Shown here: in pieces, positions 23,800-42,032 of the stretch | Layout: every line of letters begins with the position of its first letter | Position numbering within the stretch: position 1 is the first letter of the stretch | From: a virus | DNA: 64,000 bases | IMG/VR virus record: IMGVR_UViG_3300005805_000050 | Location: 58,087 to 122,086 of that record | Strand: one strand, 5' to 3' | Position numbers and translations under genes: made by a program | The notes under the pieces: generated by a model | Databases searched by the model: none | What the model was told of the DNA's origin: nothing | What the model saw: the letters and a program-made list of their open reading frames with translations, nothing else

Positions 23800-24423
23800 A
23801 TGAATGTAAGTTATGCTATAACGGTTTGTAATGAGCTTGAAGAAATTCAAAAGCTATTACCTCTGTTGATAAATCACAAGAAAATTAACGACGAAATCGT
23901 AATGCTATATGATGAAAAGAATGGATCTCAAAAAGTACTGGAATATTTGTTGCCATATAACATACGACCAAATGTCCAAGTATGGAGAAATTTTTTCGAT
24001 CACAATTTTGCAGCTGCTAAAAATAAACTGAACGCGTATTGCAAAAATCCTTGGATATTTCAATTGGACGCAGATGAGACCATATCAGAGGCTCTAATAC
24101 AAAACATCGGCGATATATTGGAATCAAACGCTGATGTGGATATGATAAAAGTTCCACGAATTAACATTGTTAACGGCATCACGGAAGAGCATATCAAAGT
24201 CTGGAACTGGAGAGTGAACGATAAGGGATGGATAAATTTCCCAGATTATCAGAGCCGGATATACAAGAATTCTGTAAACATTCGTTGGGAAGGAAAGGTT
24301 CACGAAAGAATAGTAGGCGCCACTCGACTATCAGAGTTTCCTCTTGATGAAGAATATTGTATATTACATGTAAAGGACATAAAGAGGCAAGAGCGTCAAA
24401 ATAATTACTATACCACGTTATGA
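23800..24423 (+). CDS. glycosyltransferase family 2
   Basis: SYAITVCNE, QLDADE, VPRIN, FPDYQSRI, VHE. Confidence 0.88.
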   Translation: MNVSYAITVCNELEEIQKLLPLLINHKKINDEIVMLYDEKNGSQKVLEYLLPYNIRPNVQVWRNFFDHNFAAAKNKLNAYCKNPWIFQLDADETISEALIQNIGDILESNADVDMIKVPRINIVNGITEEHIKVWNWRVNDKGWINFPDYQSRIYKNSVNIRWEGKVHERIVGATRLSEFPLDEEYCILHVKDIKRQERQNNYYTTL

Positions 24424-25736
24424 AAGAAATACTAGAACAAGTAGAAAAGTACATACAAGAAAAACATAAACAAAAAACTTGGGAAGCTGGCAAAGATTGG
24501 GTTCAGTATGCTGGACCCTACTTTGATTCCCAAGAATACGTTGCGGCTGTGAAGAGCTTGCTCAACGAGTGGCTAGTGCTTGGTAACGACGCCATTAAAT
24601 TTGAGCGCTCATTCCCAAAATTGTTTGGCAAAAAACTTGGACTGCTGACCAACTCAGGATCCAGCGCCAACCTTCTCATGATGTTGACGATGACATCTAA
24701 GAGAGGGTATAACTTTCCCAAGGGCACAAAAGTCATCACGCCTATCGCGGGTTTTCCCACTACCATAAATCCCATACTACAACTGGGATTCAAACCTGTT
24801 TTTGTAGACATCGAGATGGACACGCTGAACCTCGACCTCAATGGGGTTGAGAAGGCTTGCGAACAGAATCCCGACGCAAAGATCATCACGTTCGCTCACG
24901 TGTTGGGTAATCCTCCCGACATGGATCGCCTAATGCAAATAGTTGAGAAGTACAAGCTGATCCTTTTGGAGGACTGCTGCGACGCTCTCGGTTCGACTTA
25001 CAAAGGTAAACCTCTCGGTTCCTTCGGAGAACTCGCAAGCTGTTCGTTCTATCCTGCCCACCACATCACGATGGGAGAGGGAGGTTTCGTAGCATGTAAC
25101 ACACTCGAGAATGAGCGCATCATCCGCAGCTTCAGAGAATGGGGCCGCGGATGCTGGTGCGTGGGTAAAGCAAACCTATTGGAGAACGGAACTTGCGGAT
25201 GCAGATTCAGCAATTGGTTACCTTCTTTGCCAGACGATACATTTGATCACAAGTATACATACTCAGAGATCGGATACAACCTCAAGCCTATAGAGCTGCA
25301 GGCTTCTATGGGCCTTGTGCAGATGACCAAGCTTGAAGCTATCGGAGTCAAGCGCAGAGAGAACTACAAGAACCTGTTCAAGGCATTCGTGAAATATCAA
25401 GACTTATTTCATCTACACCCCGCGCAACCGGGTTCCGATCCAGATTGGTTCGCCTTTCCAGTGACTGTAAAAGATTCCGCTCCGTTCAAGCGTTCGGACA
25501 TCTGCCAATACTTCGAAGCCAATCGCATACAGACCAGACCGTACTTCGCTGGCAACATCATGCTGCAGCCCGCTTACGAAGGCTTGATGGATCCTAAGGA
25601 AGTTATAGAGAAGTATCCCGTGGCAAGAAAGGTGACTACAGATACGTTCTTCTTGGGAACTTCACCGGTCATAGACAAACAGAAGACAGATTACATTAGT
25701 GAAGTACTAGATAGATTCATAAAAGAAAATATGTAA
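24420..25736 (+). CDS. rfbH: CDP-4-keto-6-deoxyglucose 3-dehydrase (E1, RfbH/DdhC)
   Basis: TNSGSSANL, EDCCDALGS, SFYPAHHITMGEGG (His in place of Lys), WGRGCWC Fe-S Cys cluster, FAGN. Confidence 0.9.
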   Translation: MKEILEQVEKYIQEKHKQKTWEAGKDWVQYAGPYFDSQEYVAAVKSLLNEWLVLGNDAIKFERSFPKLFGKKLGLLTNSGSSANLLMMLTMTSKRGYNFPKGTKVITPIAGFPTTINPILQLGFKPVFVDIEMDTLNLDLNGVEKACEQNPDAKIITFAHVLGNPPDMDRLMQIVEKYKLILLEDCCDALGSTYKGKPLGSFGELASCSFYPAHHITMGEGGFVACNTLENERIIRSFREWGRGCWCVGKANLLENGTCGCRFSNWLPSLPDDTFDHKYTYSEIGYNLKPIELQASMGLVQMTKLEAIGVKRRENYKNLFKAFVKYQDLFHLHPAQPGSDPDWFAFPVTVKDSAPFKRSDICQYFEANRIQTRPYFAGNIMLQPAYEGLMDPKEVIEKYPVARKVTTDTFFLGTSPVIDKQKTDYISEVLDRFIKENM

Positions 25737-25738
25737 TC

Positions 25739-26587
25739 GTGGCGTATGTAACGAGTAATATATTAGGAGTCGATCATACAGCGGGAATAGGGTCTCAATT
25801 GTATCACTATGCGTGTTTGTATGGCATATCTAAAGATACAGGAAAAGGCATAGCTCTACCTACAGAAGTAATAGATCATGCAAATGTAGGAATCACAGTT
25901 GATAAGATTATAGACATAGACATAACACATCTATCCAAGTCAGAGATAGCTAGCTTTACAAAAATACAGTGTAATCCAATCAGCCTTGAATTTGAAACTG
26001 CGTGTAGTGATACTAGTGATACTAATTACAATTTTGTAGGATCCTTTTATAACTACCGTCATTTCTCTCCAAAATATGACTTCGACATTAGATCCATCAA
26101 ATGGAACAAAGAGTTGTATCAAACAGCTCTGAATAAGTATAATATGTATAAAGACACCAGAGAAACTGTCGCTGTACATGTAAGATTGGGGGATTACGTA
26201 TCCCACAAATCCTATTGTCACTATGAAAATACAGACTATTACGAAAAGGCGGTAAGCACGCACTTCTCAGATCAAGACAGGTTTAACTTACTTGTATTCT
26301 CAAACGAAATAAATACGTGTAAACAAAAATATGCTTCTAGAAAAAACATGGTGTTCGTAGATTGCGAGGGAGATGATGCAGTAGATCTAATAGTAATGAG
26401 TATGTGTGATCATCAAATAATAGCAAATAGTACATACAGTTGGTGGTCTGCCTACAAAAATGGAAATCCTGATAAAGTGGTGGTATGTCCCAGAAATTTT
26501 CTCAGTCCATATCACAATTTACATGTTTATCTAAATGATAAGTACTATTTGAAAGATTGGAAAGTAATAGACGCTGAATGTGTATGA
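25739..26587 (+). CDS. alpha-1,2-fucosyltransferase-like (GT11)
   Basis: GIGSQL, HVRLGDY, DLIVMSMCDHQIIANSTYSWWSAY. Confidence 0.88.
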   Translation: MAYVTSNILGVDHTAGIGSQLYHYACLYGISKDTGKGIALPTEVIDHANVGITVDKIIDIDITHLSKSEIASFTKIQCNPISLEFETACSDTSDTNYNFVGSFYNYRHFSPKYDFDIRSIKWNKELYQTALNKYNMYKDTRETVAVHVRLGDYVSHKSYCHYENTDYYEKAVSTHFSDQDRFNLLVFSNEINTCKQKYASRKNMVFVDCEGDDAVDLIVMSMCDHQIIANSTYSWWSAYKNGNPDKVVVCPRNFLSPYHNLHVYLNDKYYLKDWKVIDAECV

Positions 26588-28224
26588 AGAACGATTTGGA
26601 ATTTATCATATTGATAGCGAGCTATAACAATGAGCCATGGATAGAATACAATCTAGCTAGTGTACTCAATCAGACCTATACTAAGTATCAAGTGTATTAC
26701 ATAGATGATGCATCTATTGATAATACATATGAAATTGCCAAGAGCATTGTAGGCGATGATAGTAGATTTCATATGATCAAGAATGATCATAATATGGGAG
26801 GTACATATAATCACATTAGATACTTTGATTTAATAGAAGACGAACAAGTGTGCGTGCTCCTCGATGGGGACGATTGGTTCTTTGATGATAGTGTTTTAGA
26901 AAAGCTAAATCAGTATTATAAGGACAAAGATTACTGGATGACCTATGGAAAATTTTACGCATACGATGGCAACTCCGCGGTATTGGGCGCTCCTCAAAAC
27001 ACAGAATATCCTGGATTTGTACATGATCATAAGCTATACAGAATGGATCTGTGGAGAGCATCCCATTTGAGAACTTACAAAGGAAAATTATTGAAGGCAA
27101 TCGACAAGAAAGATTTCGTATCTATTCACGATAACAAGTTGTTTTGGCACGCTGGAGATTTGATGTTAGCATTTCCCTGTTTGGAGATGTGTCCAAAAGA
27201 TAAGATAGGCGTAGTAGATTTTCCCGCTTACGTTTACAACACATCAAATCAAAATGCAAAAAGAACACAAGAAAGAGAATCCTCAGATAACCAAAAATAC
27301 GAAACAGAGATTCGCAATAAGAAGAAGTATACAGAGGGATTATCAGGAAAAAAGAAGCCTCAAGTAAACGTTATAGGATATTTCCAGGAAACCAACTACA
27401 TACCTAAGAATTTTTCTTTCGTGTACGGATTAGATAGAGGGGAGTTTGACGTAACTATAATAAATGACGCTGAGTTGTTGCCGTATTTGCTTGGACAAAA
27501 ATCTTTTCCTAAGGGTAAGATAGTCGCTGATCTTCATGAAACTCGTCAATACAACGAATCGCAAAACAGAATATATGATTTGGTATATGATAATCACAAC
27601 CTATTCGATCTCATAATAACTCATGACGAAAAGCTATTGTCGTTACCTAATGCAGAACTTAGATTGTGCATGTGGAGATGTTTGAACAAAAACATACACA
27701 CGAGAGAGTGGCCCACACTCGCAGATAATTCCTTGTACGCACTATACGATAAGACAAAGAAAGTGTCCTGTGTATCGTCAAATAAGTCCTTCCTCCCAGG
27801 CCACAAAAAAAGATTAGAATTCGTAAATCACATCATCAATAGAGGCGGAGTTGATGTGTTTGGAATGGGGATAAATCCCATCGTAGGAAAAATTGATGCG
27901 TTAAGAGACTACAGATTTTCGGTAGCTATAGAGAATACTTTGGGTAATAACGAATGCACCGAAAAACTAAGTGATTGTTTCTTGACGGGCACTGTACCTA
28001 TATATTACGGATGTCCTAATGTTGGAAATTACTTTGACACATCAGCAATACTATCATTTAACACTATAGAAGAACTCAACGAAATTCTAAATCGGATAGA
28101 TACGGAAGGAGATAAGATGTATAGGGACATGTATAACGGCGTTAAGAACAATTTCAACCTTGTAGACATGTACTCGATAAACTCTGATCAATGGTTTGAA
28201 AAATACATAGCAAAAATTCTATAA
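26578..28224 (+). CDS. GT2 + GT10-like bifunctional glycosyltransferase
   Basis: N-terminal YIDDAS and LLDGDDW; C-terminal YRFSVAIEN, TEKLSDCFLTGTVPIYYG. Confidence 0.8.
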   Translation: MCMKNDLEFIILIASYNNEPWIEYNLASVLNQTYTKYQVYYIDDASIDNTYEIAKSIVGDDSRFHMIKNDHNMGGTYNHIRYFDLIEDEQVCVLLDGDDWFFDDSVLEKLNQYYKDKDYWMTYGKFYAYDGNSAVLGAPQNTEYPGFVHDHKLYRMDLWRASHLRTYKGKLLKAIDKKDFVSIHDNKLFWHAGDLMLAFPCLEMCPKDKIGVVDFPAYVYNTSNQNAKRTQERESSDNQKYETEIRNKKKYTEGLSGKKKPQVNVIGYFQETNYIPKNFSFVYGLDRGEFDVTIINDAELLPYLLGQKSFPKGKIVADLHETRQYNESQNRIYDLVYDNHNLFDLIITHDEKLLSLPNAELRLCMWRCLNKNIHTREWPTLADNSLYALYDKTKKVSCVSSNKSFLPGHKKRLEFVNHIINRGGVDVFGMGINPIVGKIDALRDYRFSVAIENTLGNNECTEKLSDCFLTGTVPIYYGCPNVGNYFDTSAILSFNTIEELNEILNRIDTEGDKMYRDMYNGVKNNFNLVDMYSINSDQWFEKYIAKIL

Positions 28225-28225
28225 C

Positions 28226-28642
28226 ATGGAAAAAATCTACAGCAAAATACAACCAGAAAAATTACTGCACGTCATAGTCAGAAAAACAGATCTAGTTCCA
28301 GGTAGGACCGATGTAGTATCAGAGGACAATTTCATACAGTGCGCCATATTGAACATGTCGAATGGCAAAACTTTCCGACCGCATAAGCACATATGGAAAG
28401 AAAGAACAAGAAATGTTATTGCACAAGAAAGTTGGATAGTAATACAGGGAAGAGTAAAGTGTATATTCTATGACATAGATGATAAAGTGATAAGCACGCC
28501 AACACTATTTCCTGGAGATGCATCATTTACTTTAGAGGGAGCACACACATACGAGATACTTGAGGATGAAACTCTTGTGTACGAGTATAAGACAGGTCCC
28601 TACGAAGGTCAAGCTTTGGATAAAGTATTTTTAGATGAGTGA
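28226..28642 (+). CDS. WbuC-like cupin
   Basis: FRPHKH, QESWIVIQG, GAHTY, EYKTGPY. Confidence 0.8.
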   Translation: MEKIYSKIQPEKLLHVIVRKTDLVPGRTDVVSEDNFIQCAILNMSNGKTFRPHKHIWKERTRNVIAQESWIVIQGRVKCIFYDIDDKVISTPTLFPGDASFTLEGAHTYEILEDETLVYEYKTGPYEGQALDKVFLDE

Positions 28643-29141
28643 TTTTTACATACATAAAGACGTAGAATTCAAAATAGATCCCATTATTGGGAATCACGTT
28701 GCAATTGATAAGGGCGTGTATGTCACTGTCAATTGTAAGATAGGTGATTATGTTCACATATCTCCATATGTTACAATAATCGGCGGAAAAACTGCCTACT
28801 TCGAATGTAAAGGATTCAATAACATAATGGCTGGAGCCAGAATAATTTGTGGATCTGATAGATTCGATGGCAGCGGATTATTTGGTGCAATGATTCCACA
28901 ACACCTAAAGGGCAAGCAAATAATAGAGCCAGTTGTAATGGAGAAATTCTCTAATGTAGGAACAAATGCCATAGTAATGCCTGGTTCTGTACTTAGAACG
29001 GGAGTTTTATTGGCCGCTGGTAGCTTGCTTATAGGAGATACAGAAGAGTGGGGAGTTTATAAAGGAAATCCTGCTAAGTTAGTTAAAAAAATATCTGAGG
29101 ACAAGATACTCGAAAACGCAAAACTTCTATATGAACTTTAA
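28635..29141 (+). CDS. hexapeptide-repeat (LbH) sugar acetyltransferase
   Basis: IGNHVAI, IGDYVHISP, VGTNAIVMPG, GNPAKLVK. Confidence 0.88.
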   Translation: MSDFYIHKDVEFKIDPIIGNHVAIDKGVYVTVNCKIGDYVHISPYVTIIGGKTAYFECKGFNNIMAGARIICGSDRFDGSGLFGAMIPQHLKGKQIIEPVVMEKFSNVGTNAIVMPGSVLRTGVLLAAGSLLIGDTEEWGVYKGNPAKLVKKISEDKILENAKLLYEL

Positions 29142-29721
29142 CACAGTCACAGTATTTGAAAATGAGATCGCAAAATTCTTTGGATCTAAATACGCCATAG
29201 CCACAGATAGTTGTACTCACGGTATAGAACTGTGTTTACGATACACTAAAGCCGAGAGCATAGTGTGTCCAAAGAGAACTTATCTATCTGTGCCGTTTCT
29301 ATCTCATAAGTTAGGAATAACACTAGCATGGAAAGATCAAGATTGGATGAACTACTATTACGTTACTCCTAGTGTCATCGACGCGGCTGTCTTATGGAAA
29401 AAAGACAGTTACTTACCTAACACGTATATGTGTATAAGTTTTCAATACCAAAAACACCTATCATTAGGCCGAGGAGGTATCATATTAACTGATAATGAAG
29501 AAGCAGCAATTCAATTGAAAAAGATGTCATACGATGGTAGAATACCAAATATTCCGTGGAGAGATCAAAACATTGACACGGTTGGATACCACTACTACAT
29601 GACACCAGAAACGGCTCAATTGGGATTAGACAAATTACAAGCTGCAATAAATACTAAGCCAAAACAGTGGGTACCCACCGACTGGCCTGATTTAACAACC
29701 ATGACTATATTTAAGCAATGA
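29131..29721 (+). CDS. short DegT/DnrJ-family aminotransferase
   Basis: ATDSCTHGIELCL, IDAA, SFQYQKHL..GRGG, GYHYYM. Confidence 0.8.
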   Translation: MNFNTVTVFENEIAKFFGSKYAIATDSCTHGIELCLRYTKAESIVCPKRTYLSVPFLSHKLGITLAWKDQDWMNYYYVTPSVIDAAVLWKKDSYLPNTYMCISFQYQKHLSLGRGGIILTDNEEAAIQLKKMSYDGRIPNIPWRDQNIDTVGYHYYMTPETAQLGLDKLQAAINTKPKQWVPTDWPDLTTMTIFKQ

Positions 29722-30689
29722 AAAAAGCCTTCATCACAGGAATAGCTGGCCAAGATGGCAGTTATTTAACAGAGTACTTATTGAATTTGGGATATGAAGT
29801 CTATGGCATCGTGAGAAGAAACTCAGTGCCGGAAAATCAACAGACTCGATTAGAGAGCGTGCGCGACAGAGTAAAAATCCACTATGGAGATCTCAGCGAC
29901 CAATCCAGCATAGAACATTTATTGGACAAGGTTCAACCTGACGAAATATACAACATAGCCGCTCAAAGCCACGTGCGAATAAGCTTCGATGTGCCTCAGT
30001 ACACGGCACAAATAAATGCGTTAGGCGTATTGAATGTATTAGAGGCGTATAGAAGATCGTGTCCCTCTGCAAGATTTTACCAAGCAAGCAGTTCAGAAAT
30101 GTTTGGATCTGCATGTGATTTAGACGGATACCAAAGAGAGACCACGCCTATGAATCCCGTATCGCCTTACGGTTGTTCAAAGGTGTTCGGTTACAATATA
30201 GTTAGAAACTATCGCAATGCGTATAAGCTTCATGCGTCCAACGGTATACTGTTTAACCATGAATCACCCCGTAGGGGATCTAACTTCGTTACGAATAAGG
30301 TCGTAAAAACTGCAGTGATGATAAGTCTTGGGTTAACTGATAAATTGGAGTTGGGTAATCTGGACTCATATAGAGATTGGGGACACAGCAAAGACTATGT
30401 ACGAGCAATGCACTTAATCATACAACAAGACGCGCCTGGCGATTATGTGGTAGCAACAGGAGAAACCAGATCGGTTAGAGATATGTGTAAGTATGTATTC
30501 TCAAAATTGGGTATGGATTACGAAAAGTATGTGGTGCAAAATCCCAGTTTTTTAAGGCCCGAAGAATTACCATACTTGAAAGGAGATTCGCAAAAGATAA
30601 GAACCACCCTCGGTTGGAAACCTGAGTATACCTTCGAAGCAATGATGGACGAAATGATAGAGTATTGGAAATCTGTGTATAGCAAATAA
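29718..30689 (+). CDS. gmd: GDP-mannose 4,6-dehydratase
   Basis: ITGIAGQDGSYL, AQSHVRISF, QASSSEMFG, SPYGCSK, NHESPRRG, RDWGHSKDYV. Confidence 0.95.
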   Translation: MKKAFITGIAGQDGSYLTEYLLNLGYEVYGIVRRNSVPENQQTRLESVRDRVKIHYGDLSDQSSIEHLLDKVQPDEIYNIAAQSHVRISFDVPQYTAQINALGVLNVLEAYRRSCPSARFYQASSSEMFGSACDLDGYQRETTPMNPVSPYGCSKVFGYNIVRNYRNAYKLHASNGILFNHESPRRGSNFVTNKVVKTAVMISLGLTDKLELGNLDSYRDWGHSKDYVRAMHLIIQQDAPGDYVVATGETRSVRDMCKYVFSKLGMDYEKYVVQNPSFLRPEELPYLKGDSQKIRTTLGWKPEYTFEAMMDEMIEYWKSVYSK

Positions 30690-30693
30690 ACGT

Positions 30694-31722
30694 ATGTTAA
30701 CAGTTAATATGTTCGATAGGGGTTGCGCTCACATGTTCAATGGACAATACATGGATCCGTATCAAACTCCGTCTAAACGTATTAACGAAAAGATAAAGTG
30801 GATAAAACACCCCACCAAAAATCAAGGCTTGGAAAAATGGGAAGGCATAACGGTAGTTGTAGACTCTTGGATACTGGAGGTGGGAGAAGATTTTTCCAGA
30901 AGCAATTTAATCAGTCGAGTAGATACGAAACACAAGATAGGAATACTCATAGAACCCATGTACACTCAAGCCTCGGAGTTAGAACACAATGTGTACATTA
31001 AAAATTTTGATGCTATAAAAAATCACTATGATTTCATACTCACATGGAATTCATACTTGTTGAAAAAATATCCTGATCATACTAGACTTTGTCCCGCTGC
31101 TTACACGTGGGTAAAAAAGGAAAACATAGGTGTTCATAAGAAGACTAAAAATGTGTCTATGATATATTCGTACAAACAAGCTTACGAAGGTCATCTGATT
31201 AGACACTCTGTCGCAGAACACTATCAAAAGAAATACGATAGTTGGTTCGATGATATTAGACACGACTCTGTGAAACATACAGGAATATCAATGCAATTTC
31301 CGGAAATCGATCTATACGGCACAGGGCAAAAAAATAGAGACGGCAGCATAAATTGGCAGAAGAGTCCTTACAGCAAACCCAATCAATTTTTACATGATAA
31401 AGAAGACGCATTGAAGGACTATCGTTTTTCTGTGGTCATAGAAAATGTAAACATCGACAACGGATTTACTGAAAAGTTTATAGACTGTTTGTTAACGGGC
31501 ACTGTACCCATTTATTGGGGAGTGGAGAATATAGGTGACTTCTTTGACATTAGAGGCATAGTGCAAGTTAAGAGCAAAGAAGATATAGTAAACGCAATTG
31601 ATAATTTGACTGAGGAAGATTACGTACGAATGTTGCCTTACGTCAAACTTAATTTTCAAGAGGCTATGAAATACGAGTACTTTGAAAATTCTGTCTACGA
31701 AAACATAAAACACCTGATATGA
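30694..31722 (+). CDS. GT10-like glycosyltransferase
   Basis: DYRFSVVIEN, FTEKFIDCLLTGTVPIYWG; paralogous to the C-terminus of 26578. Confidence 0.75.
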   Translation: MLTVNMFDRGCAHMFNGQYMDPYQTPSKRINEKIKWIKHPTKNQGLEKWEGITVVVDSWILEVGEDFSRSNLISRVDTKHKIGILIEPMYTQASELEHNVYIKNFDAIKNHYDFILTWNSYLLKKYPDHTRLCPAAYTWVKKENIGVHKKTKNVSMIYSYKQAYEGHLIRHSVAEHYQKKYDSWFDDIRHDSVKHTGISMQFPEIDLYGTGQKNRDGSINWQKSPYSKPNQFLHDKEDALKDYRFSVVIENVNIDNGFTEKFIDCLLTGTVPIYWGVENIGDFFDIRGIVQVKSKEDIVNAIDNLTEEDYVRMLPYVKLNFQEAMKYEYFENSVYENIKHLI

Positions 31723-32705: not shown

Positions 32706-33558
32706 GGTATCTGTCTTTGGTGGATATGGGTTTATAGGAGGAAGGTACTCTGATATGTATTCCGATCAAGTGATAAGGATACACAGAGATCATCATGAAC
32801 CTTCTACTAAAGATATACTGTATTTTATAAGTACCATAGATAACTATCACATACACGACAACATTCACATAGACGTTGACACTAATTTGACTGTGTTATT
32901 GAATGTGTTAGATAACGTTAAGAAGAATTACACAGAGAAGGACAAACCAACCATAAATTTCATAAGCTCATGGTTTGTGTACGGCAAGAATAACAACATT
33001 CCATTTAGTGAGGACTCTTACTGCAATCCCACAGGTTTCTATTCCATCACGAAGAGATGCGCTGAACAGCTATTGATTTGTTTCTGTGAAACTTTTGGGT
33101 ATAACTATAGAATAATCAGATTAGCGAATGTCATAGGAGAAGGCGATACGAAGATCTCTAAAAAGAAAAACGCCCTACAATTCTTTGTAAAGGAGATAGT
33201 TCGTAATAGAGACGTAGATCTGTATTACGGAGGAGATGTGTATAGAGATTACATATACGTGGACGATGTGTGTAGAGCCATAAATCTAATCTTACAAAAG
33301 GGTGAATTGAACACCATATATAATATAGGAAGCGGAAAACCCTACAAATTCTTGGACATGATAAACTTCGCTATAGACTACGCGAAGTCCAAATCCAAAA
33401 TAAACGACATCCCAGCCACAAGATTTCACAATATAGTGCAAGTAAGGAATTCGTACTTAGACGTTCAAAAACTGAAATCTCTTGGATTTGAACCAAAGTA
33501 TGATATCAACTCAGCCATAATGCAATTAGTAGATTTTTACAAGAGAACAAACAAATGA
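32698..33558 (+). CDS. NAD-dependent sugar epimerase/dehydratase
   Basis: GGYGFIG, FISSWFVYG, YSITK, RDYIYVDD. Confidence 0.9.
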   Translation: MSKVSVFGGYGFIGGRYSDMYSDQVIRIHRDHHEPSTKDILYFISTIDNYHIHDNIHIDVDTNLTVLLNVLDNVKKNYTEKDKPTINFISSWFVYGKNNNIPFSEDSYCNPTGFYSITKRCAEQLLICFCETFGYNYRIIRLANVIGEGDTKISKKKNALQFFVKEIVRNRDVDLYYGGDVYRDYIYVDDVCRAINLILQKGELNTIYNIGSGKPYKFLDMINFAIDYAKSKSKINDIPATRFHNIVQVRNSYLDVQKLKSLGFEPKYDINSAIMQLVDFYKRTNK

Positions 33559-33562: not shown

Positions 33563-34525
33563 ATGAAAAAGATAGTATACGTAACTGGATGTTTTGGATT
33601 TATAGGATCCTACATAACTAGAGAGTGCCTTAAACTGGGATGGTATGTGATGGGAATAGACAAGTGCACGTACGCCTCGAACGAGGAACTAATATGGGAT
33701 CTCTCAGCTGAATATCCCGACACATTCTCTTTTATAAGAGAAGACATCAACGATCTTAAGTTTTTGTACGAGTGCGATTATATCATAAACACTGCCGCAG
33801 AAACCCACGTAGGTAATTCAATAGTCGACAGCAAAGAGTTCATGCATTCGAATGTACACGGCGTGTATAACTTACTTGAGCTCATAAAAAAGTATAGATT
33901 AGAGACAAGCAAAAAACCCGCGCTCTTACACCTCTCTACTGACGAAGTGTATGGAGATATAGAAGACGGATCTCATGCAGAGACAGACATGTTGAGACCT
34001 TCGAATCCTTATTCTGCCACTAAAGCCGCCGCAGACATGTTGATATTGGCTTGGGCAAGAACATACGATCTGCCGTATGTCATAGTTAGGCCAACAAATA
34101 ATTATGGAAAAGGCCAATACGTAGAGAAGTTAATACCAAAAACTTGTAAAATGTTACACTTAGGTAAAAGAATACCTCTACACAACAATGGCACCCCAAC
34201 AAGAAACTGGTTGCACGCATCAGACACCGCAGAAGCTGTGATAAAGATAATAGAGTCTGGCAAAACCAATGAGATATACAATATCTGCGGAGGATTTGAA
34301 CAAACCAATTATGACACTGTTAAGAAGATAATCCAAACTTACTATAAAGACGAAACAGTGGATGTCAATAACTACTTAGATCTGTCCTATAAGAGACCGG
34401 GTGTGGATGTGAGGTATGCATTGGACGATTCAAAGCTGAGATCTTTGGGTTGGGAACCCAAGAAAAAATTTGACGAAGAACTTTCAGAAATCGTTGATCA
34501 CTATAAAAATAATTTCATATGGTAA
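33563..34525 (+). CDS. rfbB: NDP-glucose 4,6-dehydratase (RmlB-like)
   Basis: TGCFGFIG, AAETHV, STDEVYG, YSATK, RPTNNYG, RNWLH. Confidence 0.88.
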   Translation: MKKIVYVTGCFGFIGSYITRECLKLGWYVMGIDKCTYASNEELIWDLSAEYPDTFSFIREDINDLKFLYECDYIINTAAETHVGNSIVDSKEFMHSNVHGVYNLLELIKKYRLETSKKPALLHLSTDEVYGDIEDGSHAETDMLRPSNPYSATKAAADMLILAWARTYDLPYVIVRPTNNYGKGQYVEKLIPKTCKMLHLGKRIPLHNNGTPTRNWLHASDTAEAVIKIIESGKTNEIYNICGGFEQTNYDTVKKIIQTYYKDETVDVNNYLDLSYKRPGVDVRYALDDSKLRSLGWEPKKKFDEELSEIVDHYKNNFIW

Positions 34526-35133
34526 CGCCTGAGTACTCCGTAGACTGGTTTAGTTTACACATTCCCAATTGGGACAAATTGTTTGATTACTACCAACTAA
34601 GAGGCAAAAATAACCTCAGATTCTTAGAGATAGGATGCTTTGAAGGCAGATCTACCAATTACCTTTTAGACAATATATTAACGGGGGAGGGATCTTCTAT
34701 AGATGTTGTAGATACTTTTGGAGGGTCTAGAGACGAGGCTGGTATGAATTGGGATATTGATTATGATTTCAATGCACTCTACAAAAAGTTTGTACATAAT
34801 ATATCAAATCACAAAGACAAGGTGCACATACACAAAGGACTGTCAGGAGACATACTTAAAAAGGATTTTGTACCTAATACGTTTGACTTCATTTATATAG
34901 ACGGATCACATACGGCGTACGATGTGTTACAAGACGCCGTACTTGCACATCCGCTATTAAAATCAGGAGGCATATTGATGTTTGACGATTTTGGCTGGAA
35001 AGACCCTAATAACCTGCATCCCACAAATAGTCCTGAAATGGGTATAACGTGCTTTTACAACGCGTATGAAATTTTCTACGAACCTATATTTCAAGGCTAT
35101 CAAATAGCACTTATTAAAAAACAGCAGTTATGA
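34519..35133 (+). CDS. class I SAM methyltransferase (Methyltransf_24-like)
   Basis: LEIGCFEGRS, DFIYIDGSH, GGILMFDD. Confidence 0.88.
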   Translation: MVTPEYSVDWFSLHIPNWDKLFDYYQLRGKNNLRFLEIGCFEGRSTNYLLDNILTGEGSSIDVVDTFGGSRDEAGMNWDIDYDFNALYKKFVHNISNHKDKVHIHKGLSGDILKKDFVPNTFDFIYIDGSHTAYDVLQDAVLAHPLLKSGGILMFDDFGWKDPNNLHPTNSPEMGITCFYNAYEIFYEPIFQGYQIALIKKQQL

Positions 35134-35756: not shown

Positions 35757-35759
35757 CAT

Positions 35760-36325: not shown

Positions 36326-37087
36326 ATGAAATACTACGAAAAATCAAAATCAATTCCGGAATTATACTGTCCGGAAAAAACACTTAGTGAACTTGCGAAT
36401 CATTATGAAACTGACAAAGGCACTGCGGATTCTAAAACTTTGACTTGGGGATATTCTCACTCTGGACATTTTACCTGGGGATATACTGAAGTGTACGAAA
36501 AGTATATGAAACATTTTAGAGACACTAAGGATCCTGTACAGTTTTTAGAAGTAGGCATTCTTGATGGTAGATTTCCTTTGGCTTCACCTAAAGTTTGGTT
36601 ATCATATTTCAAAAATCTAAATCTATACTGCATAGATAATTTTTGGGGCGCTCCTCCTAATGACGATATCGCAGCAGAAATATGTTCTCTAGGTGTCAAC
36701 TTTTTCTACGCAGATCAGGGATCTGAAGAACATTGGAATGAAATACAGAAACAAATTTCACAGCCGCTGGATTTTATAGTGGAAGACGGCAGTCATTGGC
36801 CTAATCACATGTTGTACACCTTGTGGAGAAGTATACCACTAATGAGGTCAGGAGGTTTCTATTTTATGGAAGATCTACAACATGAGACTACTCAAGGCGT
36901 GTATGGTTATAACAATCACGATTTGTATCACTCAATGTTGAAATTCAAATCGACAGGGGTTTTTGAATCACAAATACTATCTTATGATATATGCAAAGAC
37001 ATAGAGTCGGCTTTTACCGTTACAGATATCCATTTAGGCGGACCTTCACACAATATCACAGTGCTTTGTGCACTACAAAAAAAATAA
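36326..37087 (+). CDS. sugar O-methyltransferase-like (MycE/TylE-like)
   Basis: ETDKG, LEVG, DQGS, VEDGSH, GGFYFMEDL. Confidence 0.75.
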   Translation: MKYYEKSKSIPELYCPEKTLSELANHYETDKGTADSKTLTWGYSHSGHFTWGYTEVYEKYMKHFRDTKDPVQFLEVGILDGRFPLASPKVWLSYFKNLNLYCIDNFWGAPPNDDIAAEICSLGVNFFYADQGSEEHWNEIQKQISQPLDFIVEDGSHWPNHMLYTLWRSIPLMRSGGFYFMEDLQHETTQGVYGYNNHDLYHSMLKFKSTGVFESQILSYDICKDIESAFTVTDIHLGGPSHNITVLCALQKK

Positions 37088-37090
37088 CAT

Positions 37091-37891
37091 ATGAAGACGC
37101 GAGAATTCAAATGCGTAAAAATCCTCACCGATCTTATTGAGAGCGACGGCCTTATCGGGATAAAGACCAGTTTTGAAGACGAAGGCGCCATGTTCGATGA
37201 AACCATCAGACTCAAGGAAATCTGCAACCAAGCCAAGACAAAGGTAACTCTTAAGATAGGCGGGCCAGAGGCCATAAGAGACATCAAAGAGTCTTGTATT
37301 ATAGGCGTTAAGGGATTGGTGGCGCCCATGGTCGAATCCCCCTTTGGACTCAAGAAGTTCATTCAAGCTGTCAACAGTAATCTACCTAAGGACGTAGTGG
37401 ATTCCCTACAGCTCAACGTAAACATAGAGACCATATCAGCGGCCAAGTCAGCTGATCAAATACTATCCATACCCGAGGCAAACCAACTTTACGGAGTTAC
37501 TGTGGGCAGGGTAGATTTGGTTTCCTCCATGGGAAAGGACAGAGCTTACGTGAACAGCGATGAAGTATTGTCCCTTGCGGAGAACGTTTTCACCTTCGCC
37601 AAAGAGAAGGGATTGAAGGCATGTTTGGGAGGCGCGGTTTCTACGGACTCTTATGAGTTCATCAAGAAGCTGCACTCTAAAAGGCTGTTGGACAAGTTTG
37701 AGACTCGTTACGCCATCTTCGATCCTTCCATAGCGTTGAAGAATCTGTCTCGCGCCCTATCAAAAGCGCAGATGTTCGAGTACGAGTGGCTCATGGTTAA
37801 ACACGAACACTACACAGCTTACGCCAACCAAGACATTAAACGCATCAAAATGATCCAAGAGCGGATCAATCAATCGCTGAGTGTGGAATGA
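37091..37891 (+). CDS. HpcH/HpaI aldolase / citrate lyase-family protein
   Basis: LKIGGPEA, APMVES, NIET, GRVDLVSS. Confidence 0.78.
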   Translation: MKTREFKCVKILTDLIESDGLIGIKTSFEDEGAMFDETIRLKEICNQAKTKVTLKIGGPEAIRDIKESCIIGVKGLVAPMVESPFGLKKFIQAVNSNLPKDVVDSLQLNVNIETISAAKSADQILSIPEANQLYGVTVGRVDLVSSMGKDRAYVNSDEVLSLAENVFTFAKEKGLKACLGGAVSTDSYEFIKKLHSKRLLDKFETRYAIFDPSIALKNLSRALSKAQMFEYEWLMVKHEHYTAYANQDIKRIKMIQERINQSLSVE

Positions 37892-38526
37892 GGGTGCTCT
37901 TAACAGGCGGCAGTAGAGGAATCGGTCTCGCGATAAAGAAAAAGTTCGAGGGAGAAGGTCACGACGTGTACGCTCCAACTCGAGAAGAGATGGATCTGTG
38001 CGATGTGCCTTACATAGAGGATCCCGCGTACGACATAGTAATAAACAACGCCGGCGTGAATCCACTATCCGAGTTGGTAGAATTTAACTATGAGGAGGAT
38101 TACGCGATGAAGGTCAACTACTTCTCTCCTTTGCACATCATAAAGCAATGCTTGCCTTACATGATAGAGAGAGGCTACGGTAGGATAGTGAACATAGGAA
38201 GCGTGTGGACCAAACTGTCGAAAGCAAAGAGATCGAACTACAGCGCAAGCAAGTGTGCGTTGGATTCCCTCTCCAGATCCATCACTGCTGAATACGCAAG
38301 GTACGGAGTGCTATGCAATACCGTTTCCCCAGGCTTCATACTCACTGACATGACCCTCGACAACAACACAGAAGAGGAATTAGAGGGCATAAAGAGCACC
38401 GTACCAGTAAATAGATTGGGAGACTGCAAAGAGATAGCAGACCTTGTTTACTACCTAACGGTCAACAACACTTTCATATCGGGACAAAACATATTCATAG
38501 ACGGAGGGTACGCATGCGTAGCTTAG
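37888..38526 (+). CDS. SDR oxidoreductase
   Basis: TGGSRGIG, NNAG, YSASK, PGFILTDM, DGGY. Confidence 0.92.
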   Translation: MRVLLTGGSRGIGLAIKKKFEGEGHDVYAPTREEMDLCDVPYIEDPAYDIVINNAGVNPLSELVEFNYEEDYAMKVNYFSPLHIIKQCLPYMIERGYGRIVNIGSVWTKLSKAKRSNYSASKCALDSLSRSITAEYARYGVLCNTVSPGFILTDMTLDNNTEEELEGIKSTVPVNRLGDCKEIADLVYYLTVNNTFISGQNIFIDGGYACVA

Positions 38527-39542
38527 ACATAAAATCCAGATCGGGAAACTACAGCGTAGTTTTTACTGACATCGATAAGACCATAGATTTCATTAAAGAC
38601 ATGACTGTGGTCGTAGATTCTAACGTGTACGATCTGTACCAAAACCGCTTCGCTGGTTTGGACGTCGTAAAGTTCAGGTGCGAAGAGGACAACAAGACTC
38701 TCGACGGTGCTGCTTTCATAATGGAGCAATTCGTAGAGAGAAAGTTGAAGTCTAACGCAACAGTGGCTGTGGTGGGAGGAGGCATACTCCAAGACTCAGC
38801 GGGTTTCGCCTGTTCAGTTTACTGCAGAGGCATTAAGTACGTATTGGTTCCCACGACTCTGCTGTCCCAATGCGACAGCTGCATAGGAGGCAAGACATCC
38901 ATAAACTTCTGCTCGGTAAAAAATATCTTGGGAACCTTCTACCCTCCTCAAGAGATACTTATCTGCACAGAATTTCTAAACACCCTTACTCAATCCGACT
39001 ACCTCAGTGGGTTGGGTGAGATAGTCAAGTTCAATCTGCTCGATTCAAAGCTGGATTGGTTTCTTTCAAAAGACACCAGATCTGACGTTGAGGAACTGAT
39101 CTACACATCTCTGTTGTACAAGAGCAGAATCATAGAGATTGACGAGTTCGATAAGAAGGAGAGGAAATTCTTGAACTTCGGTCACACTTTCGGTCACGCG
39201 CTGGAGTCCACATCTCACTATGGAGTACCGCACGGCACAGCTGTACTGATAGGCATCGCCATAGCAAACAGAGTATCTCAGAAGTTGGGACATTTGAAGG
39301 AAGACAGATCATTAGATATCATACTTAAGTACACCGAACACCAACACTTGAATCCCGCTTGGTTTGATTTCGCCAACCTACTAGAGGTCATAAAGCTGGA
39401 CAAGAAGAGCACAGGTTCCATCAACATGGTGCTCCTTACGGACTCGAAACCCATTCTTCAAAAGATAGAAAATTTGATTATATTAGAGGAAGCAGTAAAA
39501 GAAATTTATGAGACTCTCAGACTACGTAATAAAGTATCTTAA
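38514..39542 (+). CDS. 3-dehydroquinate synthase-like sugar-phosphate cyclase
   Basis: GGGILQD, PTTLL..CDSCIGGKT, KNILG, LNFGHTFGHALE, HG.AV. Confidence 0.88.
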   Translation: MRSLDIKSRSGNYSVVFTDIDKTIDFIKDMTVVVDSNVYDLYQNRFAGLDVVKFRCEEDNKTLDGAAFIMEQFVERKLKSNATVAVVGGGILQDSAGFACSVYCRGIKYVLVPTTLLSQCDSCIGGKTSINFCSVKNILGTFYPPQEILICTEFLNTLTQSDYLSGLGEIVKFNLLDSKLDWFLSKDTRSDVEELIYTSLLYKSRIIEIDEFDKKERKFLNFGHTFGHALESTSHYGVPHGTAVLIGIAIANRVSQKLGHLKEDRSLDIILKYTEHQHLNPAWFDFANLLEVIKLDKKSTGSINMVLLTDSKPILQKIENLIILEEAVKEIYETLRLRNKVS

Positions 39543-41247
39543 AGAAGTCGAAGGTATCGACACCGTATTCACTGTATCGGGAGGTGGTTGCATATTTCTC
39601 GTTGATTCTCTATCTAATGTAGAGGGTTTGAAATACATCGCTACTCATCACGAACAAGCCGCTGCAATGGCCGCAGAAGGATATGCAAGAATGAGTGGAA
39701 AAATGGGAGCTTGCGTAGTAACTTCTGGACCCGGCGCTACAAACGCCATAACTGGAGTATTAGGTGCGTGGCTAGATTCCATACCAGTAATGGTAATAAG
39801 CGGTCAAGTTAATAAGGAAATGACCACTAACTACACGCGCCTGAACCTCAGACAACTCGGAGATCAGGAATTTAATGTTGTTGAAACGGTTAAGAACATG
39901 ACAAAGTACGCCGTACAAGTCAACGATGAAAAAGAAATTCGATATCACATAGAGAAAGCGTGTTCACTAGCCAAATCAGGCAGACCAGGTCCAGTGTGGT
40001 TAGACATACCACTAAACATACAATCAGCCAACATAGAGCCTGAAACTTTAGTCGGGTATGATAATTTATATTCTGTACCTGAACCCACGAACAATCAACT
40101 CGATTTAATTGTAGAAAAACTAAGACATGCAAAGAAACCACTATTGATAGTTGGTAACGGTATAAGATTGAGCGGAGCAATTAAAAGCTTGCACGAATTA
40201 TTACAGAGGATACAGATACCCGTAATATCTGCTGTCAATGGAAACGACTTAGTAAATGATGATTACGAAGGGTACTGTGGAAGATTTGGAACACACGCTC
40301 AAATATGTGCAAACAGTCTCCTCTCTGAGGCAGATTTCCTATTGTCAATAGGTTCTAGATTGTATGTTAGACAAGTTGGTCATAATTTCAAGGCTTTCGG
40401 CAAAAATGCTTTCAGAGTGTATGTAGACATAGACGAGAACGAACTGAACAAACCCACACTCTTTCCAGACCTGGCCGTCCATTCAGACGCTAATGCGTTC
40501 ATTCGTGGTTTACTAAATAAAAACCTTTCTCAAACGGATTCTAAGTGGTTATCGTATTGTTCAAACAAGTATAAAACAACACCAACCGTATTGGAGAAAC
40601 ACAGAAAGAAGGCGCATACAGTAAGTCACTACTATTTCATAGAGCAGTTAAGCAAAGTCTTAACAAAGGATGATCACATAGTTACAAGTGACGGCTCCGC
40701 AAATGTGGTGACCATGCAAGTAATGAAGTTGAAAGGAGGCCAGAGACTAATCACAAATACAGGTAACGCTCCAATGGGATATGGTCTTCCAGCTGCCATA
40801 GGGGCCAGTTCTACAGGAACACCTATAATATGTATAGAAGGCGATGGTAGTTTGCACATGAATATACATGAGCTTCAAACAATGAAGCACAACAAACTTC
40901 CAATAAAGCTGATCATATTAAACAACGACGGTTACACGTCCATAAAGATATCTCAGAAAACATTCTTTAAGGGTAAGTTCGTAGCATCAGAAAAGAATAG
41001 CGGCGTGTCACTGCCAAATTTTAAGAAGATAGTAGAAGCTTATGAACTGCCATATTACTCAATAATAGATCACGACTCTGTCGCCAAGGGATTATACCAA
41101 TTCTTAAATCACGAAGGTCCCTGCGTACTAGAGGTATTCACGGATCCAGAAGAGTTTCATGAACCAAAGGTGGCAGCAAAATTAGGATTAGACGGAAAAT
41201 TTATACCAGGAAACTTAGAAGACATTAAATGGATATCTGAATCATGA
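39508..41247 (+). CDS. ThDP-dependent acetolactate synthase-like carboligase (YerE-like)
   Basis: HHEQAAAMAAEGYAR, TSGPGATN, SGQV, MGYGLPAAIG, GDGS...NNDGY. Confidence 0.88.
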   Translation: MRLSDYVIKYLKEVEGIDTVFTVSGGGCIFLVDSLSNVEGLKYIATHHEQAAAMAAEGYARMSGKMGACVVTSGPGATNAITGVLGAWLDSIPVMVISGQVNKEMTTNYTRLNLRQLGDQEFNVVETVKNMTKYAVQVNDEKEIRYHIEKACSLAKSGRPGPVWLDIPLNIQSANIEPETLVGYDNLYSVPEPTNNQLDLIVEKLRHAKKPLLIVGNGIRLSGAIKSLHELLQRIQIPVISAVNGNDLVNDDYEGYCGRFGTHAQICANSLLSEADFLLSIGSRLYVRQVGHNFKAFGKNAFRVYVDIDENELNKPTLFPDLAVHSDANAFIRGLLNKNLSQTDSKWLSYCSNKYKTTPTVLEKHRKKAHTVSHYYFIEQLSKVLTKDDHIVTSDGSANVVTMQVMKLKGGQRLITNTGNAPMGYGLPAAIGASSTGTPIICIEGDGSLHMNIHELQTMKHNKLPIKLIILNNDGYTSIKISQKTFFKGKFVASEKNSGVSLPNFKKIVEAYELPYYSIIDHDSVAKGLYQFLNHEGPCVLEVFTDPEEFHEPKVAAKLGLDGKFIPGNLEDIKWISES

Positions 41248-42032
41248 AAATACTAGTTACAGGAGCAGGAGGTTACATAGGAAAATCTATAGTAAACGCT
41301 TTAAGGGAGATCCACGATGTGGATGGTATCACCCGCGCAGACTTAGATTTATTAAACACAAACGATGTACTGAAATTTTTCAAAAAGAAGTATTACGATG
41401 TTGTGATACATTGCGCAGTGGCAGGGGGCAGTAGATTAAAGCAAGATAGTTGGCAAGTGTTGGATCAAAATCTAATCATGTACTATAATCTAGTGAGTTG
41501 TAGAGGATCATACGAGAGGCTTATACACTTTGGATCGGGCGCAGAGATTTACATGTTTGATACACCGTATGGATACAGTAAGAGTGTCATATCAAAATCA
41601 ATGAAGAACGATTCGCAGTTCTATAACATAAGGATATTTGCGCTTTTTGACGAGAACGAACTGGATACCAGATTTATAAAAGCATCTCTCTTGAACTACA
41701 TAAACAAGAGACCTATAGTAATACATAAGAATCGATACATGGATTTCTTCTATATGAAAGATCTAATTAGCGTTGTAAATTACTACATCACTGAAGAAGA
41801 ACCTACTTTTAGAGAGTACAACTGTAGTTATTTGTCTCATAACAACATGCAAACTTTAGAGAGCATAGCTAATTACATAAACACTCTAAACAATTACACG
41901 GTTCCTATCAATATAAATGATCACTTTATGGATATGGACTACATTTCAAAAACTACCCAATCTATAAAAGACATACAGTATATAGGACTTTTCGAGGGTA
42001 TTAAACAAACATATCAAAAACTAAGCAAATGA
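41244..42032 (+). CDS. NAD-dependent epimerase/reductase
   Basis: TGAGGYIG, FGSGAE, YGYSK, MDFFY. Confidence 0.85.
   Translation: MKILVTGAGGYIGKSIVNALREIHDVDGITRADLDLLNTNDVLKFFKKKYYDVVIHCAVAGGSRLKQDSWQVLDQNLIMYYNLVSCRGSYERLIHFGSGAEIYMFDTPYGYSKSVISKSMKNDSQFYNIRIFALFDENELDTRFIKASLLNYINKRPIVIHKNRYMDFFYMKDLISVVNYYITEEEPTFREYNCSYLSHNNMQTLESIANYINTLNNYTVPININDHFMDMDYISKTTQSIKDIQYIGLFEGIKQTYQKLSK

Follow-up and report, generated by a model that had tools for sequence, protein, structure and literature searches.

A modular gene island in an uncultured freshwater phage probably directs the synthesis of C4-carbon-branched deoxysugars

A handful of bacterial surfaces are known to bear branched higher-carbon sugars such as caryophyllose, whose branch is a 1,3,4,5-tetrahydroxyhexyl chain; how such sugars are made has been outlined only. 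In Mycobacterium marinum, the caryophyllose sub-locus of the lipooligosaccharide (LOS) genes, MMAR_2329-2336, is annotated with a dehydroquinate synthase (DHQS)-family protein (MMAR_2329), an aldolase (MMAR_2331), a thiamine diphosphate (ThDP)-binding protein (MMAR_2332), a GT2 glycosyltransferase (MMAR_2333), RfbF, RfbH (MMAR_2335) and a cytidine diphosphate (CDP)-glucose 4,6-dehydratase (MMAR_2336) (PMC12395582). Mutants in MMAR_2331-2333 lose caryophyllose, and MMAR_2332 and YerE-like enzymes accept gamma-hydroxy keto acids as donors (PMC9306805). Here we analyze a stretch of 64,000 nucleotides (the window), the final 64 kb of the 122-kb IMG/VR virus record IMGVR_UViG_3300005805_000050, which is rated 75% complete. 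In it, an uncultured freshwater phage bears a block of sugar genes of ~25 kb, the glycan island (20167-45146), which is probably a phage-borne factory for nucleotide-activated, C4-carbon-branched deoxysugars together with the transferases that use them.

Two other described systems bear on the island. In yersiniose A synthesis by YerE and YerF of Yersinia pseudotuberculosis, as in our proposal for the phage, a ThDP enzyme puts a pyruvate-derived C2 unit on C4 of an E1-made 3,6-dideoxy-4-ketohexose and a reductase finishes the sugar. Additionally, acetyl branching of nucleoside diphosphate (NDP)-ketosugars is an established activity of E1 alpha/beta enzymes that lack E2 and E3, and those of the alpha-KADH2 type add a pyruvate-derived acetyl branch at C3 or C4 (PMC12247030).

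Compared by annotated gene content, the phage island shares with the M. marinum sub-locus a DHQS-family gene, an HpcH/citrate-lyase-type aldolase, a YerE-like gene, a GT2 gene, RfbH and an NDP-glucose 4,6-dehydratase. The scheme drawn for M. marinum also resembles the one proposed below, in that a keto-acid donor and a 4-ketosugar acceptor are joined and the product is then reduced (PMC9306805). In contrast to M. marinum, the gene order of the phage differs and the phage adds a mini E1 pair and two methyltransferases. Every enzyme type listed in an earlier note on this DNA was recovered by Pfam, NCBIfam and PDB sequence searches and one fold prediction. Its route to a 3,6-dideoxy-4-keto sugar (E1-type RfbH plus a 4,6-dehydratase), its YerE-type C4-branching enzyme accompanied by an aldolase and reductases, as for erwiniose/caryophyllose (PMC9306805), and its second ThDP system of the E1 alpha/beta type all held up. 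The island is wider than the 24420-42032 given there, and includes at least eight glycosyltransferases and a WbuC-type cupin that were absent from that list.

The island is phage DNA rather than a bacterial insert, since phage replication genes lie upstream (a UvsX-like recombinase, a DnaB-like helicase, ribonucleotide reductase, DNA polymerase and GroEL), its G+C content of 0.36-0.45 is the same as that of the remainder of the window, and the large open reading frames (ORFs) of the window are all on the plus strand, as are all features given here. Its genes are intact, co-directional ORFs, and neighbours mostly overlap by 4-35 nt. A copy of one island protein, identical in sequence, is borne by a 177-kb contig. 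A megablast search with the island and the replication region against 50,697 phage records gave zero matches.

As judged at the family and residue level, two island enzymes can yield an NDP-3,6-dideoxy-4-ketohexose, the sugar to be branched. An RmlB-like NDP-glucose 4,6-dehydratase of 320 aa (33563..34525) scores 303 bits against TIGR01181 (cut-off 365) and carries the 4,6-dehydratase signatures TDEVYG and YSATK. It reaches 78 bits against the CDP-type model and is thus RmlB-type, unlike the M. marinum enzyme. The second enzyme is an E1-type RfbH/DdhC, a pyridoxamine phosphate- and Fe-S-dependent NDP-4-keto-6-deoxyhexose 3-dehydrase (24420..25736; NF011936, 462 bits, cut-off 423). It scores 332 bits to PDB 3bcx, a CDP-6-deoxy-L-threo-D-glycero-4-hexulose 3-dehydrase, versus 164 bits to ColD. 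Aligned to 3bcx, it keeps both the His that replaces the pyridoxal phosphate (PLP) Lys (AHHITMGEGG) and the Fe-S cysteines (CC / CxC...C). Four related phages (G004, G008, G003 and G006; loci L242-L245) are without an Fe-S RfbH and encode a ~380-aa ColD-type homologue in which the His is kept and none of the Fe-S cysteines is present. The predicted 3-dehydratases of this phage group are thus of two kinds, Fe-S RfbH and ColD-type, which alternate.

The genes for branching lie in a slot whose left edge is the RmlB-like gene (58-74% identity in ~130 loci) and whose right edge is a divergent extended short-chain dehydrogenase/reductase (SDR) of 262 aa (41244..42032; PF01370, E 6.6e-18). This SDR always follows the branching module, and its nearest PDB relatives, RmlD and GDP-fucose synthase, are distant at 20-30 bits; it is probably a YerF-like ketoreductase. 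Within the slot, an HpcH/HpaI-fold class II pyruvate aldolase (37091..37891) matches PF03328 with 41.8 bits. A PDB search with its single sequence gave no match, and the fold was settled by profile, model and Foldseek: the profile search matches YfaU with the metal Glu and Asp aligned, the AlphaFold model has a pLDDT of 94, and the top 25 Foldseek hits are all HpcH/HpaI class II pyruvate aldolases. We infer that this aldolase makes a 4-hydroxy-2-keto acid. It is 66-78% identical in phage loci and lies two genes upstream of the YerE-like gene, with the SDR-DHQS pair in between. The SDR of this pair is a short classical one (37888..38526, 212 aa; PF00106, E 5.5e-34), which immediately precedes the DHQS-like gene in almost every viral locus and in 18 bacterial loci, and the two genes are the tightest unit of the cassette. 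The slot also contains two methyltransferases. A class I S-adenosylmethionine (SAM) methyltransferase (36326..37087) is without a Pfam match, and was recognized by an Atlas feature score of 0.95 and TM scores of 0.72-0.76 to Methyltransf_24-type clusters; its homologues precede HpcH in at least 10 loci. The other, also SAM-dependent, is of the Methyltransf_24 family (34519..35133; PF13578, E 8e-19).

The carboligase of the cassette belongs to the acetolactate synthase (ALS)-fold decarboxylase superfamily (39508..41247) and is YerE-like, scoring 378 bits to the YerE homologue JanthE (8rph) versus 273 bits to 5ahk and 240 bits to acetohydroxyacid synthase (AHAS) I of E. coli. The canonical GDG motif and the catalytic Glu (HHEQ) are kept. 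It falls under all AHAS equivalog cut-offs, reaching 366.5 bits of the 538 set for TIGR00118. No close relative of this enzyme was found in the 50,697 deposited phage records, and a 2025 review lists viruses as an unexplored source of such enzymes.

We searched IMG/VR with a DHQS-like profile and ran the island proteins by tblastn against 160 loci (L numbers). The search returned 134 DHQS-like relatives with identities of up to 62%, versus 45% at best in cellular genomes. About 60 IMG/VR contigs share one gene order, namely RmlB-like, optional methyltransferases, HpcH, SDR, DHQS-like, YerE-like, 262-aa SDR, GT2 and four small ORFs, with 40-78% identity across the core cassette. The SDR-DHQS-YerE genes, with or without RfbH and HpcH, also occur in bacterial loci (L001-L010, L020, L057, L064 and L067) from Clostridia, a Polyangiaceae metagenome-assembled genome (MAG) and Actinomycetota MAGs, several of which have RfbH and HpcH as well. 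Where HpcH is missing, its place is taken by a NeuB-family protein (L124, L137), an HMGL-like pyruvate aldolase (L001, L002, L008) or PanB (L210), and all of these stand-ins are predicted 2-keto-acid makers. The PanB-type ketopantoate hydroxymethyltransferase (L210:10984-11910, 327 bits) lies between the YerE-like gene and the slot reductase, directly after an E1 alpha/beta pair, which hints at a dimethyl-branched hydroxy keto-acid donor.

The DHQS-family enzyme (38514..39542) belongs to a cassette-linked clade. It scores 325.9 bits against TIGR04425, the AroB-related putative phospholyase (cut-off 400), and 254.8 bits against the aroB model TIGR01357 (cut-off 305), and thus remains under both cut-offs. 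In PDB searches, DHQS chains reached 153 bits and ValA (4p53) and 5tpr reached 83.7 and 81.8 bits; DHQS chains outscored the solved chains of the 2-deoxy-scyllo-inosose, 2-epi-5-epi-valiolone and desmethyl-4-deoxygadusol synthases. The comparison of residues covered cassette copies from phages (42) and from bacteria (nine), and 54 bacterial AroB homologues that have no SDR next to them. Thirteen residues, which from their matching spacings we take to be those of the DHQS active site (Aspergillus nidulans numbering), were invariant: R105, D121, K127, N137, E169, K172, K203, R217, N221, H224, H228, H240 and K297/298. These residues coordinate Zn, bind phosphate or, as the Lys and Arg do, hold the carboxylate. 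Because the carboxylate and phosphate binders are kept and DHQS chains outscore the sedoheptulose-7-phosphate cyclases, the substrate should be a 3-deoxy-2-ulosonate phosphate like 3-deoxy-D-arabino-heptulosonate 7-phosphate (DAHP), rather than sedoheptulose 7-phosphate. A sedoheptulose-7-phosphate cyclase of the valiolone or gadusol type was rejected on the lower scores and the retained carboxylate-binding Lys and Arg. In L008 and L010 the DHQS-like gene has FGGY kinases beside it, which fits the requirement for a phosphate ester.

Similar to AroB, then, the phage protein has the DHQS fold and family, the same 13 active-site residues and DHQS chains as its best solved relatives. The DHQS-like and ALS-like genes could thus be plain aroB and ilvB, carried as auxiliary metabolic genes that boost host synthesis of aromatic and branched-chain amino acids. 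The best NCBIfam names besides TIGR04425 are indeed aroB (255 bits) and acetolactate synthase large subunit (366 bits), and the DHQS active site is intact. However, both scores are below the curated cut-offs (305 and 538 bits), the ALS-like protein is far nearer to JanthE (378 bits) than to AHAS (240-273 bits), and no shikimate dehydrogenase was found in the 122-kb record. Both genes are locked among the aldolase, SDRs and sugar genes in the ~60 phage contigs and in bacterial RfbH loci; in every locus examined the neighbours of the DHQS-like gene are sugar genes. Additionally, the cassette-linked DHQS-like proteins form a separate clade of 77 sequences (support 0.86) with zero AroB homologues without an adjacent SDR inside it. 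We rejected the auxiliary-gene explanation on the sub-cut-off scores, the proximity to JanthE, the missing shikimate dehydrogenase and the separate clade, and regard it as barely credible; these look-alikes of amino-acid enzymes are probably sugar enzymes. This cautions against labelling phage 'aroB' and 'ilvB' genes as auxiliary genes of amino-acid metabolism. Unlike AroB, the phage enzyme is always coupled to an SDR in sugar clusters, and we propose that its ring closure is forestalled or intercepted.

Because all DHQS residues are kept, the SDR partner is constant and HpcH is replaced elsewhere by NeuB-, HMGL- and PanB-type makers, the DHQS-like enzyme would serve to tailor a keto acid. In the proposed long-branch route, HpcH would join pyruvate to a phosphorylated aldose (e.g. 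erythrose 4-phosphate) to give a DAHP-like 3-deoxy-2-ulosonate phosphate. Oxidation, phosphate elimination and reduction by the DHQS-like enzyme would then leave a terminal methyl ketone, which the partner SDR would reduce ahead of cyclisation. The YerE-like ThDP enzyme would decarboxylate the resulting keto acid and add the product to the C4 ketone of the sugar, and the 262-aa SDR would reduce the branch carbonyl. The predicted product, a 4-C-(1,3,4,5-tetrahydroxyhexyl)-3,6-dideoxyhexose, has the constitution of caryophyllose. A DAHP-like C7 acid can give this branch because phosphate elimination leaves the terminal methyl, the SDR reduces the ketone and decarboxylative addition makes the chain 2'-deoxy. 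The scheme accounts for every cassette gene. In contrast to yersiniose A synthesis, where YerE delivers a C2 unit, the phage YerE-like enzyme sits with keto-acid makers and so probably uses a long donor, as do ErwE and MMAR_2332.

The DHQS-like enzyme could instead fully cyclise the aldolase product, the ring then being reduced and joined to, or replacing, the NDP-sugar to give a sugar of the caryose or bradyrhizose type, an option that the earlier note had raised. All catalytic residues of a cyclising DHQS are kept, and the last steps of the DHQS reaction are largely spontaneous, so that the intermediate, once phosphate is eliminated, cyclises by default. YerE-type enzymes also take cyclic ketones as acceptors (PMC12247030). 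However, a dehydroquinate-like product is not a 2-keto acid and so cannot be a YerE donor, and the M. marinum locus of the same gene content makes an open-chain branch with a terminal methyl (PMC9306805). The invariable SDR partner fits the trapping of a methyl ketone, the cassette is without an activating enzyme for a free carbocycle, and the solved sedoheptulose-7-phosphate cyclases score under DHQS. Given the retained carboxylate and phosphate residues, the lower cyclase scores and the open-chain product of M. marinum, the carbocyclic part of the earlier note is not supported: we consider the cyclising route quite unlikely, and a phage sugar that carries or is fused to a caryose- or bradyrhizose-like carbocycle from the aldolase product distinctly improbable. 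If true, genes would thereby be assigned for the first time to a carbocyclic-sugar pathway, and this pathway would be phage-borne.

A second viral cassette (L133-L136, L138, L139, L142, L148, L150, L157 and L159; at ~7000-13000 of these loci) also contains the SDR-DHQS pair, with no YerE-like or aldolase gene. It encodes a CTP_transf_3 cytidylyltransferase to which a cupin may be fused, a class III aminotransferase and SIS-like, MptE/Maf-like and GT29-like proteins. In its DHQS-like copy the K197-equivalent is changed to His. By its gene content, this cassette looks like a route to a cytidine monophosphate-activated amino-deoxy ulosonic acid from a DAHP-like precursor.

The slot of the phage island contains a further pair of ThDP genes, a mini E1 alpha-like protein of 208 aa with the pyrophosphate (PP) domain (35130-35756; PF00676, E 1.3e-18) and a mini E1 beta-like protein of 178 aa with the pyrimidine (Pyr) domain (35760-36296; PF02779, E 6e-7). 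The alpha subunit carries the ThDP motif GD(x)28N and the beta subunit the catalytic Glu (VAE). No match to E2 (PF00198) was found in the 122-kb record. Similar to alpha-KADH2-type enzymes such as KbDH-alpha/beta (PMC12247030), the pair consists of two E1-like ThDP subunits, has no E2 or E3, and lies beside NDP-sugar dehydratases and a ketoreductase. It differs in size, since full-length E1 subunits have ~320-370 aa. Relatives of the mini E1 alpha were found in 473 IMG/VR stretches and, at E <= 1e-30, in 91 representative clusters of a 1.84-billion-protein library, mostly at ~200-220 aa. Both halves match phrog_34187. By these matches the mini E1 proteins are a family of their own, spread through phages. 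A cyanophage protein annotated, with no specific function, as 'transketolase central region-containing protein' (SSM2_198 of S-SM2, and its counterpart in P-TIM68) is ~37% identical to the mini E1 alpha and belongs to PHROG 34187. Like the pair, SSM2_198 lies inside a phage sugar/lipopolysaccharide gene cluster, whereas its halves are fused (~402 aa) and its neighbours are heptose-type genes, not RfbH, RmlB and YerE.

To compare slot contents, we sorted distinct loci by the genes that separate the 262-aa SDR from the RmlB-like gene; since those genes also served to select the loci, the counts are not frequencies. The E1 alpha/beta pair alone fills the slot in 39 distinct loci, HpcH-SDR-DHQS-YerE with or without methyltransferases in 29 loci, and NeuB-type variants in ~10 loci. 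Both modules are present only in L118/L171, L173 and this window. The mini E1 pair and the YerE cassette are thus alternative occupants of one genomic slot, and here both are present. The earlier note had argued that two branching systems plus aldolase and cyclase are more than yersiniose requires; a surplus over the needs of one sugar is not supported, as the two systems are alternative modules. Because the pair sits between a 4,6-dehydratase and a reductase in the 39 loci, it would transfer acetyl to an NDP-ketosugar, and it is probably a carboligase that adds a C2 branch. The cassette with the pair alone reads as a yersiniose-type pathway, given the established role of E2- and E3-free E1 alpha/beta enzymes in acetyl branching. 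In the phage, the mini E1 pair would add a pyruvate-derived acetyl group to the same kind of ketosugar to give a yersiniose-type sugar; the short-branch task that YerE performs in yersiniose A is here more likely that of the pair. The two methyltransferases would tailor the products.

Further split ThDP pairs of ~215 and 158 aa occur at L185:9961-11078, L134:2178-3282, L135:1886-3017 and L138:3131-4235. These divergent pairs match Transketolase_N and Transket_pyr or are weakly E1 beta-like, and they adjoin RfbH, RmlB and reductase genes. In L185, the divergent pair is additional to an E1 alpha/beta pair.

The surroundings of the slot may be modular as well. In many relatives (e.g. L166, L168, L183 and L193) RfbH adjoins the RmlB-like gene upstream, whereas here ~8 kb separates the two, occupied by a GT11 gene, a GT2/GT10 gene, a cupin-acetyltransferase-DegT-Gmd block, two transferases and an SDR. 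This difference in spacing suggests that sugar modules were inserted into a fixed gene frame.

The acceptor of the glycan is probably cytoplasmic, because the 29 island proteins gave no membrane-span-like segment, and thus no membrane protein that would hint at a lipid-linked glycan, and because a flippase, a polymerase and a priming transferase were all absent from the proteins seen. On this acceptor the at least eight soluble glycosyltransferases would build the glycan, a virion protein being the first guess and hydroxymethylcytosine DNA the second. Phages are known both to glycosylate virions and to hypermodify DNA with glycans, as noted in PMC12619734. If the pathway holds but the glycan is built on 5-hydroxymethylcytosine DNA instead of virion proteins, the solubility of all island proteins and the Zn-ribbon protein among the transferases would fit, and phage glycosyltransferases that place diverse glycans on DNA have been reported (Pyle 2024, as cited in PMC12619734). 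However, no island transferase was linked to DNA-glycosyltransferase families. At least eight transferases and several rare sugars also appear, to our knowledge, more complex than known DNA glycans. We hold a DNA target to be unlikely, a virion protein being the first guess. The small Zn-ribbon protein (23352..23798) has a weak primase-type CHC2 zinc-finger match of 19 bits, under the cut-off, and is kept at 29-56% identity between the glycosyltransferase genes of many related phages. Nucleic-acid binding by this protein, if true, would bear on the question of DNA glycosylation.

Several points weigh against a factory for C4-branched deoxysugars as proposed here. By sequence, the DHQS-like active site is indistinguishable from that of a true DHQS, and full cyclisation to a dehydroquinate-like ring is possible. 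Steitz et al. (2022) derive the caryophyllose donor of M. marinum by the aldolase alone, with no role assigned to the DHQS-family gene MMAR_2329 (PMC9306805), and our literature search found no link of dehydroquinate synthase to caryophyllose, LOS or O-antigen clusters beyond an annotation table in a supplement (PMC12395582). The mini E1 subunits match the first halves only of their profiles (positions 16-179 of 315 and 7-154 of 327); relative to known branching E1 enzymes, the C-terminal halves are missing, among them the C-terminal domain of beta. One dehydratase and one slot-edge reductase would have to serve two branching modules here. We infer every substrate in the scheme, and the acceptor, whether virion, DNA or other, is a guess.

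The set for the NDP-3,6-dideoxy-4-ketohexose is also incomplete, and this counts against the scheme as well. Of the components outlined for YerE-type pathways (PMC9306805), a predicted carboligase, aldolase, dehydratase and E1 are present. A sugar nucleotidyltransferase (PF00483, PF12804) and an E3-type reductase (PF00175) had no match in the 122-kb, 75%-complete record, which sets the phage apart from M. marinum. Nucleotide activation and the electron donor for the Fe-S cluster may come from the host or from the missing quarter of the genome.

The absent E3-type reductase could also mean that the mini E1 pair, rather than being a carboligase, is a pyruvate-driven electron donor that replaces the reductase of RfbH. 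The compact set of RfbH, RmlB-like, E1 alpha, E1 beta and reductase genes in many loci mirrors rfbG, rfbH, rfbI and rfbJ one for one, and divergent mini ThDP pairs adjoin RfbH in L134, L135 and L138. However, of ten related contigs tested, six contain the pair and are without Fe-S-type RfbH, two of the six being rated 100% complete. The sole homologue in those contigs is ColD-type, with the His kept and the Fe-S cysteines all absent, and so does not need a reductase. We know of no precedent for an E1 enzyme that feeds a foreign Fe-S cluster, and SpnQ, an E1 homologue, makes use of general cellular reductases. An E3 replacement, weakened by the two complete relatives that combine the pair with a cysteine-less ColD-type homologue only, is thus very improbable, and we retain carboligation as the predicted function of the mini E1 pair.

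The island most likely makes rare deoxysugars with carbon side chains, by a chemistry known from bacterial surfaces such as that of M. marinum. The novelty claimed in the earlier note stands in part: the pathway is new for phages in the literature searched, where the lack of a close YerE-like relative among deposited phage records agrees, but its chemistry is of a known kind. Common in large freshwater phages, the caryophyllose-type gene set with its DHQS-family gene is built of modules: the slot takes the long-branch genes, the short-branch mini E1 pair or the two together. What the island chiefly contributes is this modular slot, the family of mini E1 proteins and, for DHQS-family enzymes, a testable role, which is thereby offered for MMAR_2329. 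With 386 aa in two chains, the mini E1 pair is a very small and widespread candidate ThDP carboligase; there is an active search for ThDP carboligases that form tertiary alcohols, for use as biocatalysts (PMC12247030). The island suggests that some phages may decorate themselves or their own DNA with very unusual sugars.

The remaining island genes encode transferases, an amino-sugar module and the conserved frame. Two paralogous phage glycosyltransferases of 482 and 431 aa (20167..22914; phrog_2170 glycosyltransferase, E 3e-13 and 1.5e-12) make up the left part of the conserved frame and are syntenic in many related contigs. Next to RfbH are a GT2 glycosyltransferase upstream (23800..24423; PF00535, E 6.7e-11) and, downstream (25739..28224), a GT11-like glycosyltransferase of the fucosyltransferase type (PF01531, E 2.4e-18) followed by a two-domain GT2 and GT10 glycosyltransferase (PF00535, E 2.3e-21; PF00852, E 1.6e-9).

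The amino-sugar module begins at 28226..29721 with a WbuC-type cupin (TIGR04366, 42.7 bits, cut-off 42), a NeuD/PglB/VioB-type hexapeptide acetyltransferase (28635-29141; TIGR03570, 51.6 bits) and a short DegT-like PLP protein of 196 aa (29131-29721; PF01041, E 1.4e-17). It ends with a GDP-mannose 4,6-dehydratase-like protein, Gmd (29718..30689; TIGR01472, 392.5 bits, cut-off 415; PF16363, E 2e-117). The four genes are kept as a block, 66-81% identical in L088, L089, L111 and L156, and would lead to a further amino sugar. The 'aminotransferase' of the earlier note corresponds to the DegT-like match, which is present, but only as this short protein. It keeps a PLP-lysine motif of the SF..xK...GGI type and the entire C-terminal domain is absent; in several phages it has 195-198 aa at 61-72% identity and lies beside the cupin, acetyltransferase and Gmd genes. 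By its motif and length it could be either a minimal aminotransferase or a non-catalytic remnant.

Between Gmd and the RmlB-like gene lie a GT10-like glycosyltransferase (PF00852, E 6.5e-6) and a GT-B-fold phage glycosyltransferase (together 30694..32705). The latter is without a Pfam match, its nearest Atlas clusters having GT1 domains (TM 0.91-0.92). They are followed by an extended SDR of the NDP-sugar epimerase/reductase type (32698..33558; PF01370, E 1.3e-26) with Rossmann and YxxxK motifs, which in relatives is often directly upstream of the RmlB-like gene.

Downstream of the slot, a GT2 glycosyltransferase (42029..43312; PF00535, E 3e-7) comes after the reductase in many loci, and the M. 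marinum GT2 protein MMAR_2333 is encoded at the matching place; it is the candidate transferase for the branched sugar. Four small ORFs of 99, 114, 135 and 246 aa (43343..45146), without a Pfam match and with 31-65% identity downstream of the GT2 gene in many loci, close the syntenic frame. Lastly, the final frame ORF (44406-45146, 246 aa) has a Cys-rich stretch and a weak HNH-endonuclease PHROG match (E 7.5e-6).

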